DNA of 64,000 nucleotides from Eledone cirrhosa (Eukaryota): assembly GCA_964016885.1 (NCBI GenBank), contig OZ024741.1, positions 14,446,001-14,510,000 on the forward strand, read 5' to 3'. How positions within the stretch are numbered: the stretch's first letter is position 1; every line of letters starts with the position of its first letter. This document shows positions 8,631 to 26,435 of the stretch, in pieces. The position numbers and the translations under genes are program-made. The notes beneath the pieces were generated by a model. The model ran no database searches. It was not told where the DNA came from and was given only the letters and a program-made list of their open reading frames with translations.

Positions 8631-8953
8631 CCGATAATAATAATAATAATAATAATAATAATAATAATAATAATAATAATAATAATAATGATTTCTTTAT
8701 TAACCACAAGGGTTTACATAAAGTAGACATTAAGGACAGTGCAGGACAATGCAGGACGGTACAAATGGGCATTTCTGCGTGTAAAAAAAAACAAAAACAG
8801 AGGATGTAACAAAAATAACAATGAAAATAACAATGAAAAATTCCCCAATAGGGGGGAGACTTCGGAGGGACATTTGTGGAGAAAGCCCAGTAAAAAGCCA
8901 CAATGACCCTGACCACCAAGGCAAGTGCCCTCTCCCAGTTTTCCACCTTTAGT

Positions 8954-11900
8954 TTACAGATATATACTCAGAGTCGGCCCATTCACTCGGGCCATTCTTG
9001 CTTCTCTCACCCATCTTTCAACAAAATGCTGGGAAGAGAGCACTTCCTTCTCTACTCTGATTTTCCTTTTCAAATGAAATTTGAAAAAGTCAATCAGAGC
9101 ATCACCGAAGAGGTAAGTGCTCGTCTTCAGCCCTTTCAAACGTGTCCACCATACTATCTCTTTCGCCATGGCCACCAGACAGATAAAAACTGCCTGCCCT
9201 TCCCGGCTAAAGGAGGAGGGCGGGGCAATCCTCACGATAGACTCAGATGATAGCTGGATCCGTCCTAAACGCGACAGCAGGTGTTCGACATAAACCCACA
9301 AGTCAGCAATTTTCGGACACTGGACGAGTGCGTGCAGGACGGTTTCGTCGCCCTGCGCGCATCTCGGACATGCCCGGCTGACGGCACCTCCATGCCTGTA
9401 GAGTTTATCCCGAACTGGCAAGGCTCCTCGGTAGCACTGCCAGGCCAGAGATTTCTGGAAGTTGTCCATAGGCCCTGGCCCGAAAGTTCTTCCGAAGAGA
9501 TTGGCTAGTTGATTTTCGTCGACGCCTAGAGTTTCCCCAAGTACGTCGTCGCTCTTCCCCTCCACTAATCCTCTATAGAACGCCGAGGTGGAGTTTCCAC
9601 CGATCACATTGCCCGATTGGTCGAGGGCTGTGAGCGCCTGAAGACATTCCAGTCTCCAGGCGCTCCCTCTCGGTCTTCGCTTGACCCAGGACTGCAGCTC
9701 CGTCAAGGAAACGAGCTGGGGAAAAACGCGTCTAGCAAACGGCGACCACACCTGATCACCGTCGAGGAAGAGGTGGAGATGTCGTAGCCTGAGCGCGTGC
9801 CTGCGCATCATCAGCCACGGCATGCCCAGCCCTCCACGTAGCGGGTGTTGACAACAGATGGACCGCCTGACCATCGGAGCACGTCCCTTCCACAAAAAGC
9901 GAAAGAGCAAACGCTCCAGCGCAGTCAGGCGAGGCTTAGGACAAGGTACGACGGTTAGGCGGTAGCAGATGACAGACGCGATGTACGCGTTAGCCACCTC
10001 CGCTCGACCTTTCAGGGATAGCTTCCTCTCCGCCCATTTCTGGGTGAGAGAAGCCACCCTGCTCGTCACCTCGTCCCAGTTTTTGTCCGTCTGGAGGTCC
10101 GGACCGAACCAGACCCCTAGCAATTTAACCGGTCCGTCCGTCCAGCGCCCGACGACGCTGTTGGACGGCATGGACCTGCCTCTCCAGGTGCCGAGCTGCA
10201 GGCCCACTGACTTTTCCTGGTTGATCATTGCTCCTGTCACCGCTTCGTATTCTCTTAGTGTAGTGCCGATCGCCTCGATGTGTTTGGCGTTCGACACCAC
10301 TACGGTGACATCGTCCGCATATGCTGACACGGATCTTCCGCATCCTAGTTCGCGCGGGACTCCCCTCAACGTCTCCAGTTTGTGCAGTAATGGCTCGAGA
10401 GTCAATACGTACAAGAGGGACGAGAGGGGACATCCTTGGCGGACCGAGCGCATGATGTTGAACGGTTCCGACAGGTGACCGTTCACTCTCACCACAGAGC
10501 AGATGTCGCTGTGCATGGCAGCGATCCAGCCTCTGAAGACGGGCCCAAAGCCAGCCGCCCTCAGGACTGCCGCTAGGTAACGATGGTCGACCCTATCGAA
10601 AGCTTTCGACTGATCTAAATTGATCAAGGACCCACCCGTGCCAGGTTCCCTAGCTACCCTCTCTACGATGTATCGCATGAGGTGGAGGTTGTCGTGGATG
10701 GATCTGTCGGGAATGGCGCATGTCTGCGCCTCTCCCACCAGACCACCAACGACAAGCGCCAACCTCTTTGCTAGCACCTTGGCCAAAATCTTAAACTCTG
10801 TGTTTAGCAGAGTTATGGGCCGGAAATTGTCTATGTTATCCCCCTTGTTCGGATCCTTTCTCAGCAGTGCCACCGCTCCTCGGCTCACAGAACTGGGAAT
10901 TCTCCCGTTCTGTTGCCAGTTGCAGTAGACGTCCGCCAAGAGGCCTCCGAACAAGTCTGGCATCTGTACGTAAAGTTCATAGGGCAGACCATCCAAACCA
11001 GGCGATTTACCCCTTGTGCAGCCAGTCATTGCCTCCCGTACTTCAGCGGCTGTTATCGGCTTTTCGCAACACTTCGCCTCAGTGGCCGAGAGCCGCGGCA
11101 GTCCGTCGAGGTAGACACTAAAGTCCATCCCTCTACCCGGCCCCCCGCTGCCCCCGAACAGCTGAGCGAAGTGTCGCTGAAAAGCTTCACACATTTGCCC
11201 GGGATCGAGTAGCATGCGCCCGTCGTGGTCCACCAAAGACCGGATCGTGGCTTTGTTGCCACGACGCGCCTCCGCCACTCGGGCCCATTGAACGGCTTTC
11301 GTCCCCTCGTGTCTGAGAGCACGCACCCTAGCTCTGACAACGCAGCCTTCGTGCTTTGCATTGAAGAATTGGTCAAGGGCCAATTTCGCCGCAAGCACGT
11401 CGGTCGCAATGCCTTTGCTAAGCGCCTCGTCTAATTTTCTAACTAGTTCTCCCTCTGCTCTATTTTTCTCTATTGCTAAAGCCTTACTAAACCTAATCGA
11501 TTCTATTCTAATCGCTCTTTTCAGAGCAAACCACCACTTGTTGTTGACGATGGCCCCCGTCAACGCCCGCTTAACTAGTTCGCTAATCCGGTCTCTGTAG
11601 GCCTTGCGCGCTGGTAAGGACGCGTTTAGCTTCCAGTAGCCGGGTCCTCGTCTATGAAGCCTATCTAAGTCAAGCACACAGATCACGAATTTGTGGTCCG
11701 TGTAGCTGACTATCTTGAATTGTGGACAGCCTATGCTAGACCTATCTATTTCCCTACAAAATACTCTATCTAGATATGATCTGGATGACCCTATGCGGTT
11801 TGTCCAAGTCCACATTGGCACATTCGGGAAATCCAATCGGTACCTGTCAGACAGTTCAAAACGCCTGAGCAGGTTGGTGAGGCTCTTGCACCCTCCACCC

Positions 11901-25080: not shown

Positions 25081-25094
25081 ATAATAATAATAAT

Positions 25095-26435
25095 GCTTTC
25101 TTTATTAACCACATAAGTTTACATAAAGTAGACATTAAGGACAATACAGGACGGTATAAATGGGCATTTCTGCGTGTAAAAAACAAAAACAGAGGGTGTA
25201 ACAAAAAAATTACAATGAAAAACTCCCCAATACGGGGGAGACTTCCGAGGGACATTCGTGGACAAAGCCCATTAAGAAGCCACAGTGACCCTGACCACCA
25301 GGTCAAGTGCCCTCTACCAGTTTTCCACCTTTAATTTACAAACACATACTCAGAGTAGGCCCATTCACTTGGGCCATTCTTGCCTCTCTCACCCATCTTT
25401 CAACAAAATGCTGGGAAGAGAGCACTTCCCTCTCTACCCTGATTTTCCTTTTCAAATGAAATTTGAAAAAGTTAATCAGGGCATCACCGAAGAGGTAAGT
25501 GCTCGTCTTCAGCCCTTTCAAACGTGTCCACCATACTATCTCTTTCGCCATGACCACCAGACAGATAAAAACTGCCTACCCTTCCCGGCTAAAGGAAGAG
25601 GGCGGAGCAATCCTCACGATGGACTCAGCTGATAGCTGGATCCGTCCTACACACGACAGCAGGTGTTCGACATAAACCCACAAGTCAGCAACGCTCGGAC
25701 ACTGGACGAGTGCGTGCAGGACGGTTTCGTCGCCCTGCGCGCATCTCGGACATGCCCGGCTGACGGCACCTCCATACCTGTAGAGTTTATCCCGAACTGG
25801 CAAAGCTCCTCTGTAGCACTGCCAGGCCAGGGATTTCTGGAAGTTGTCCATAGGCCACGGCCCGAAAGTCCTTCCGAAGAGATTCGCTAGTTCATTTTCG
25901 TCGAAGCCTAGAGGTTCCCCAAGTACGTCGCCGCTCTTCCCCTCCACTAATCCTCTATAGAACGCCAAGGTGGAGTTTTCACCGATCACATTGCCCGATT
26001 GGTCGAGGGCTGTGAGCGCCTGAAGACATTCCAGTCTCCAAGCGCCCCCTCTCGGTCTTCGCTTGACCCAGGACTGCAGCTCCGTCAAGGAGACGAACTG
26101 GGGAAAGACGCGTCTAGCAAACGGCGACCACACCTGATCACCGTTGAGGAAGAGGTGGAGATGTCGTAGCCTGAGCGCGTGTCTGCGCATCGTCAGCCAC
26201 GGCATGCCCAGCGCTCCACGTAGCGGGTGTTGACAGCAGATGGACCGCCTGACCATCGGAGCGCGTCCCTTTAAAAAAAAACGAAAGAGCAAACGCTCCA
26301 GCGCAGTCAGGCGGGGCTTAGGACAAGGTACGACGGTCAGGCGGTAGTAGGTGACGAACGCGATGTACGCGTTACCCACCTCCGCTCGACCTTTCAGGGA
26401 TAGCTTCCTCTCCGCCCATCTCTGGGTGAGAGAAG
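25095..26435 (-). mobile_element. 5'-truncated Tx1 copy 3 (3' ~1.3 kb)
   Basis: Homologous to the ORF2 C-terminus and 3' UTR of copy 1; internal stop at 25576. Confidence 0.93.

Follow-up and report, generated by a model that had tools for sequence, protein, structure and literature searches.

How do two retrotransposons with unrelated endonucleases come to occupy one trinucleotide repeat, each in a single orientation? The question is raised by a stretch of 64,000 nucleotides from Eledone cirrhosa (GenBank assembly GCA_964016885.1, contig OZ024741.1, positions 14,446,001 to 14,510,000 of the forward strand), referred to below as the window. In it, copies of a long interspersed element (LINE) of Tx1 type with an APE endonuclease (Tx), of a LINE of Dong/R4 type with a restriction-like endonuclease (RLE; element R4) and of a short interspersed element (SINE) are joined by (AAT)n. 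The order Tx(-), Tx(-), R4(+), SINE(-), Tx(-), with only (AAT)n between the members, had been given in a preliminary description of the window, and the coordinates determined here (8636-26435) agree with it. The answer reached is that thousands of copies of the two LINE types lie in (ATT/AAT)n in fixed opposite orientations and that each very probably inserts through target-primed reverse transcription, primed on whichever strand can pair with its own RNA tail.

Flanks and polarity of the repeat-borne LINEs

In all six Tx pieces of the window (3' ends at 8690, 14761, 25095, 42157, 48576 and ~49559) the sense strand runs out into (ATT)n, and the five R4 pieces (20893, 40958, 41223, 48095 and ~49433) have (AAT)n on both sides, both as described before. 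The two long Tx copies have the second open reading frame (ORF2) and the 3' end in common (96% at the nucleotide level) and differ in the 5' untranslated region (UTR) and ORF1 (56% amino acid identity in the core); their 5' ends are called head A and head B. Tx heads were counted genome-wide (3.0 Gb) as exact patterns with and without a preceding ATTATTATT. The repeat precedes head A in 1564 of 1604 and head B in 2090 of 2240 exact matches, in exact phase, and altogether 3654 of the 3844 heads (95%) begin directly after (ATT)3. The background was determined in 40 evenly spaced 10-kb stretches, where (ATT)3 precedes 96 of 800,000 strand-positions (0.012%); a 400-kb sample held 7 AAT arrays versus 43 of AAC, 23 of ATC and 20 of ACC, AAT being the rarest of these. 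When loci were read individually, the array was found in the same phase at 30/30 head-A and 30/30 head-B loci (one of the latter being the window's own), and a third head type is also preceded by (ATT)6 (locus L408). In raw reads from three other samples, 95-96% of the depth at head A is retained into the repeat. Contigs of organisms coded B, C and D span head B into the repeat; they were not used for range.

At the other end of the element, 28 of 30 Tx copies lead into an ATT-rich run by eye. Exact 3' motifs, which give lower bounds, number at least 6936 for Tx and at least 3404 for R4a, the R4 family of the chain, of which at least 252 exact heads were counted. An AAT run precedes the R4a head within ~20 nt at 30/30 loci (degenerate in one), and 30/30 R4a 3' ends run into AAT.

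Polarity was determined in a census of 330 distinct arrays of at least five units, taken from the genome loci collected and from the window, the loci having been chosen by element ends. An element could be assigned to 500 of the 660 array sides. The sense strand reads AAT at all 255 R4 sides and ATT at 202 of 203 Tx and 41 of 42 SINE sides, and the fixed opposite polarity of the two LINE types proposed from the window thus extends to the census. As joints, 56 arrays connect an R4 5' end with a Tx 5' end, 22 a Tx 3' end with a Tx 5' end and 12 a SINE 3' end with a Tx 5' end; 132 of the 330 have a 5' end and no recognised 3' end. A 3' tail cannot account for the 56 head-to-head arrays, and the window's own example, (AAT)15 between 20848 and 20892, is by its head-to-head position the tail of neither Tx nor R4. 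Taken with the frequency of the repeat at the heads, these arrays uphold the earlier view of it as a target and not just a tail. The tabulation of flanks and orientations, which had been set beforehand as a check, gave neither AAT-poor 5' flanks at full-length heads (genome-wide for Tx, at 30 loci for R4a) nor random orientation. As a separate observation, in locus L098 a Tx tail directly adjoins the 3' end of an RTE-like element, which has (AAG)n as its tail and lies in opposite orientation.

The copies are also clustered. Among the first 100 head-A places on one contig (C1), 21 of the 99 gaps are shorter than 15 kb (1.1 expected), and 20 of these 21 lie on the same strand. Together with the Tx-3'/Tx-5' and SINE-3'/Tx-5' joints, this clustering agrees with the self-extending arrays postulated earlier. 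Tandem duplications, unequal crossovers or assembly errors could in principle produce such chains, many neighbours being one element length apart and the loci L215 and L216 constituting a duplicated pair. Neighbouring copies, however, belong to more than one subfamily, as do heads A and B in the window, and the raw reads of other samples retain the junction between head and repeat; this origin is largely refuted and scarcely credible. For the adjacent copies L200 and L201, tandem duplication was ruled out, the two differing at 21 sites, as distant copies do.

Affiliation of the LINEs and the SINE

Tx has two ORFs, of which ORF2 comprises an APE domain, a reverse transcriptase (RT) and a C-terminal CCHC motif (Pfam), the architecture of the L1 group, and many copies hold open ORFs. 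Among solved structures it comes closest to human L1 ORF2p (E 4e-52, versus 1e-21 for R2); Tx belongs to the L1 group of retrotransposons without long terminal repeats. In RT trees (94 rows, and 42 of those rows) it forms its own lineage with unnamed relatives of 40-79% identity (support 100/99), outside the Keno-type group inserted in U2 (L265, L268; Rfam) and a Ciona/Denticeps protein group, the trees holding no Tx1L, Kibi or Koshi. The label Tx1 is suggested by the architecture, and the targeting also fits; the forks of the RT tree are weak deeper down. ORF1 gave no Pfam match. It carries a CCHC knuckle at residue 373, and its Atlas look-alikes (0.90-0.93) carry zf-CCHC, a ZCCHC3-type RNA-binding domain or an RRM, a lead only. 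In the Tx1 clade, ORF1 combines a CCHC knuckle with RNA-binding domains, and the ORF1 of Tx fits this pattern. Structure models (predicted local distance difference test 35 and 48) were too poor and were left unused. In both head A and head B, the ORF1 stop codon overlaps a consensus-like splice donor (window 12409 and ~18455, - strand).

According to the passages of PMC4494074 available to us, a Tx1 target preference is recognised at over 20% of flanks; the value for Tx is 95% of 3844 heads. The (TC)n and (TTC)n targets of Kibi and Koshi do not apply to Tx, whose target is (ATT)n and which adjoins (TTC)n at only 2 of 23 truncated ends. Among metagenome relatives (22-48% identity in the best segment), no ATT flanks were found in the 26 of 80 inspected; the relatives at 40-44% (P0002-P0037) had no DNA attached and are not among these. 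Two of the metagenome relatives, L265 and L268, are inserted in U2 as Keno is, and L288 adjoins U1 small nuclear RNA (snRNA) sequence and may be a U1-targeting APE element. A crude descriptor found no ribozyme like that of hepatitis delta virus (HDV) at the Tx heads, and Rfam gave one chance-level match over 8400-26500.

R4 has a single ORF with RT and C-terminal CCHC, RHD and PD..D endonuclease motifs, and is without APE; an open R4 ORF of 1216 amino acids was found in L224, and among solved structures only R2 proteins match it. With the APE domain of Tx ORF2, these motifs confirm the pairing of an APE-type with an RLE-type element that had been suspected. The single-ORF RLE architecture and the sense-strand (TAA)n target are those of Dong/R4, a class assigned from architecture and target with no named reference in the comparison. 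A second family, R4b, with pieces at 40958-48512, shares 36% protein identity with R4a. The R4a copy at 20893 starts ~950 nt inside the natural 4909-nt copy of L230 and, with that much of the 5' UTR missing, is 5'-truncated.

Several features accompany the R4a 5' end. A crude, uncalibrated descriptor gave 0 matches to an HDV-like ribozyme in the 5' UTR. Nested stems at 20910-21040, whose loop could pair with a 7-mer farther downstream, were seen by eye as a possible pseudoknot and are identical in the best 40 matches listed. A fixed 50-nt fragment of a SINE tail lies in the 5' UTR at 28 of 30 loci (L031-L060), ~80-130 nt upstream of the match, and in L171 a whole SINE stands in its place. (AAG)n is often found between the AAT array and the R4a 5' end (L228, L234, L243, L245, L042 and L047), and compound (AAT)n(AAG)n repeats hold one polarity.

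The SINE, putatively a tRNA-derived octopus SINE, resembles the Tx lineage in 3' end, tail, duplication length and site; ARAGORN found no tRNA in the window. The last 30 nt of the SINE are similar to the 3' termini of three subfamilies of Tx (ORF2 C-terminus ~64-94% to that of the window), and SINE and subfamily ends have a stem of 3-4 bp around the loop CUUGU, ~12 nt before the tail. In the hairpin alignment, both partners vary in three of the four base pairs, and pairing is kept in 92% of the cells versus 15-54% when slid; two other LINE ends in the window are without the Tx/SINE tail. ATT runs precede 12 of 30 near-full SINE copies. Outside arrays, 25 of 56 copies are flanked by duplications of 11-25 bp (median 16), nearly all beginning ATTA. 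The SINE uses the Tx site less strictly than Tx does, and from the shared 3' hairpin with its compensatory stem changes and the ~16-bp ATTA duplications it is probably mobilised by Tx. SINE tails directly precede the heads of 12 Tx copies. The 5' UTRs of heads A and B each contain a similar hairpin immediately upstream of ORF1; any role for it would be a guess.

Truncated copies and the mode of insertion

Eighty Tx copies were traced, of which 52 were full-length (47 with the exact ATTATTATT junction) and 23 truly truncated; the remaining five, three with another head region and two with a head and an internal deletion, were set aside. Tracing of 40 R4a copies from the 3' end gave seven full-length and 28 truncated copies and five with internal deletions, which were set aside. 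The truncated R4a ends lie by eye on AAT (25), on AAG (2) or on neither (1). The earlier statement that full-length and most truncated 5' ends abut the repeat stands for full-length Tx copies (3/3 in the window) and fails for most truncated ones (1/3 in the window, 10/23 traced); in the window, the end at 26435 meets a 13-bp satellite and that at 49936 an AT run. A 16-bp duplication beginning ATTATT flanks L382, and the duplication markers at the full-length Tx copies L201 and L400 fit.

Several points weigh against insertion by targeting of the repeat. By eye, ATT adjoins only the said 10 of 23 truncated Tx ends, and only 6 under a script rule of three perfect units; of the others, 4 lie on TTC, ACT or ATC and 9 on neither. 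Ten of 23 is far above the background of 0.07% and well below the figure for full-length heads, and part of the 95% at the latter may therefore be repeat carried on the RNA. The interruptions of the 5' array in L384, L386, L415 and L428 do not recur at the 3' side, and no empty site was seen, no dedicated empty-site test having been run. In the census, 160 of 660 array sides were not assigned, two sides break polarity, a Tx side in L114/L204 and a SINE side in L106, and, owing to the choice of loci by element ends, the counts show polarity and not genome-wide occupancy. As for the SINE, 31 of the 56 copies are without a duplication under the rule used. The 12 rows of the hairpin alignment were hand-picked and loop-anchored and come from about four related lineages, and a single hairpin folds no better than shuffles; the covariation is thus good but not formal support.

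The repeat might be part of Tx only, as its tail and a carried 5' run, in which case Tx would insert anywhere and R4 would colonise the runs brought by it. Of 123 arrays ahead of a Tx 5' end, 56 have an R4 5' end opposite and could be obtained from R4 targeting alone, but 34 begin precisely where a Tx or SINE copy stops on its 3' side. The clustering of head-A copies, 19-fold over random, and the presence on ATT of 10 of 23 truncated ends, which are unable to carry a 5' run, also speak against such an origin, and it is very unlikely.

Targeting could, alternatively, arise from RNA-DNA pairing. Either strand of AT-rich DNA would then be opened by a loose APE or by existing nicks, and insertion would follow only where a nick can pair with the (AUU)n tail and, at the 5' end, with AUU units carried along. 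Tail complementarity alone would yield the polarity. The looser ATTA, TTC, ACT and ATC sites of the SINE and of truncated Tx copies are consistent with such pairing, as are the full-length junctions (47/52 ending in ATTATTATT), which are far more exact than the truncated ones, and R2 elements with upstream target sequence on their RNA provide a precedent (PMC3774820, as available in part). The pairing explanation is nevertheless rather improbable: nearly all SINE duplications begin ATTA, as if the first cut were made at a favoured site, the heads gave no HDV-like ribozyme (crude descriptor; Rfam), and the known specificity in the Tx1 clade is ascribed mainly to the endonuclease in the available passages of PMC4494074.

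In the preferred explanation, target-primed reverse transcription within the repeat, the Tx enzyme would nick the AAT strand and prime on its (AUU)n tail, and the R4 enzyme would nick the ATT strand and prime on its (UAA)n tail. Since the AAT strand alone can serve to prime an (AUU)n tail, and the ATT strand alone a (UAA)n tail, opposite orientations would follow. We infer strand-specific nicking from sequence, and polarity alone does not establish strand specificity of a nuclease. Insertion would leave repeat on both sides, for Tx probably through the duplication of ~16 bp, and each insertion would make two new targets, so that chains would grow. As three different 5' UTR/ORF1 heads go with one target, ORF2 is the probable seat of the specificity. 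The SINE would probably use the Tx ORF2 protein via the shared 3' hairpin and insert at looser ATTA sites, and its tail would seed new arrays.

A wider scheme is put forward tentatively. In this three-party, self-feeding system, an undescribed ATT-specific lineage of Tx1 type would mobilise the very abundant SINE via the CUUGU hairpin, SINE tails would seed (ATT)n at ATTA sites, and these arrays would be invaded by Tx on one strand and Dong/R4 on the other and be renewed by them; the second hairpin, in the Tx 5' UTR, perhaps with RNA-carried AUU, would let ORF2 hold both RNA ends. If true, such holding of both ends would explain the 52 of 80 full-length copies with a base-exact junction.

The window and related systems

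Features of the two chains in the window (positions in nucleotides from the start of the window)
Feature	Position	Strand	Remark
(AAT)18	8636..8689	.	3' flank and tail of first Tx copy
Tx1-type LINE, head A	8690..14718	-	full-length, 6029 nt; ORF1 and ORF2 open
3' UTR hairpin, loop CUUGU	8702..8714	-	common to other Tx subfamilies and SINE tail
Head-A ORF2, 1139 aa	8954..12373	-	APE endonuclease with catalytic motifs, RT (YADD), C-terminal CCHC zinc finger; Pfam PF03372, PF00078, PF13966 and motifs
Head-A ORF1, 698 aa	12409..14505	-	CX2CX4HX4C knuckle; region like ZCCHC3-type RNA-binding domains
Head-A 5' UTR hairpin, loop UUUGU	14531..14543	-	similar to 3' hairpin; folding energy no better than shuffles
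(AAT)14	14719..14760	.	separates the two long Tx copies
Tx, head B	14761..20847	-	full-length; ORF2 in three frames; SINE within ORF1 region
SINE within head-B copy	about 18740..18943	-	20-bp duplication beginning ATTA
Head-B 5' UTR hairpin, loop CUUGU	20685..20697	-	
(AAT)15	20848..20892	.	separates Tx 5' end from truncated R4 5' end, head-to-head
Dong/R4-type LINE, family R4a	20893..24859	+	5'-truncated by ~950 nt; single ORF in four frames; RT, CCHC, RHD, PD..D motifs
~45 AAT units	24860..24994	.	two interruptions; from R4 3' end to SINE 3' end
SINE 3' piece	24995..25080	-	5'-truncated
(AAT)5	25080..25094	.	
Tx copy	25095..26435	-	5'-truncated; 93% to long copies; 5' side meets 13-bp satellite, not AAT
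Second chain	40896..49936	.	R4b(+), R4b(+), Tx head B(-), R4b(+), Tx(-), R4a(+), diverged Tx(-); AAT runs as joints

Elsewhere in the window, the 13-bp satellite (87 copies) and a tandem array of ~52-bp period occupy 26464-27590 and 61232-62637, and 232-bp tandem units and inverted repeats lie within (TA)n at 39771-40389 and 28167-28576. Two more degenerate LINEs with RT matches, at 37036-39626 (+) and 55006-56314 (-), end in (TA)n and (GAT)n-like sequence, not in ATT.

The following comparisons with published work draw on the portions of the cited papers available to us. Dong targets TAA repeats, snail DongBg included (PMC3812793), and a Dong junction primer places (TAA)n 5' on the sense strand (PMC3774820). 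Like the Dong elements (Bombyx Dong, DongAg, snail DongBg), R4 of E. cirrhosa has a TAA target, a sense-strand 5' repeat and a single ORF with RT and RLE; unlike them, it comprises two families, R4a and R4b, and shares its target with an APE element. An HDV-like ribozyme is present in Bombyx Dong (and Ascaris R4), whereas the crude search of the R4a 5' UTR found none. Octopus vulgaris has many Dong-R4 copies, with families that were active recently (PMC13282606), and Dong-R4 and L1-Tx1 are among the expanded coleoid LINEs (PMC8967140; PMC13282606). By these LINEs and the SINE, the repeat content here looks octopus-like. The R4 half of the system is a new member of a known Dong habit.

The Tx1 microsatellite targets named in the text of PMC4494074 are TC (Kibi), TTC (Koshi) and TTCC/TTTC (crocodilian families). 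Tx is, like these, a microsatellite-specific two-ORF APE LINE with a T-rich sense repeat, and two of its truncated copies lie on (TTC)n; unlike Kibi and Koshi, which were compared by description with no reference sequence, it has (ATT)n as target and an invertebrate host. Crocodilian SINEU is inferred to be mobilised by the target-specific Tx1-Mar, and some SINE families have a weaker target preference (PMC4494074). The link in E. cirrhosa differs in consisting of a covarying 3' hairpin, the tail and the duplication length, and here the SINE tail creates the LINE target. Two LINE types also converge on one target in Keno (Tx1, APE) and Utopia (NeSL, RLE), both in U2 snRNA genes (PMC4640811). 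Those two have the same 3' flank in a gene, whereas Tx and R4 face opposite ways in a microsatellite regenerated with each insertion. SART and TRAS are two LINE families that form mixed arrays of opposite polarity in insect (TTAGG)n. Both of these are R1-clade APE elements at telomeres, whereas the nucleases of Tx and R4 are unrelated and their target is dispersed.

In the literature covered, no ATT-specific Tx1 and no octopus SINE partnered with a Tx1 were found, Repbase, Dfam, subscription reviews and the further targets in Fig. 3 of PMC4494074 lying outside its scope; the available passages of PMC8869645, PMC4758252, PMC3747384 and PMC9004415 give no ATT target and no partner for the SINE. 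There is an appreciable, though minority, chance that an ATT-specific family of Tx1 type has already been catalogued. What would be new here is the ATT-specific lineage of Tx1 type, its opposite pairing with R4 and the hairpin link to the SINE.

The short list of microsatellite-specific APE retrotransposons is thereby extended by another target, and a candidate partner LINE is provided for an abundant octopus-type SINE. In Tx and R4, nature has set two unrelated nucleases to work on a single substrate, which allows a direct comparison of recognition by APE and by RLE, and with many copies holding open ORFs, nicking, priming and trans-mobilisation of the SINE are open to direct assay. AAT markers in such genomes are often retroelement junctions (3/5 arrays in an evenly spaced sample). 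Finally, the system offers a mechanism for the LINE hotspots of such genomes, which were mapped in a recent repeat annotation in whose available text the word 'target' occurs 0 times (PMC13282606).

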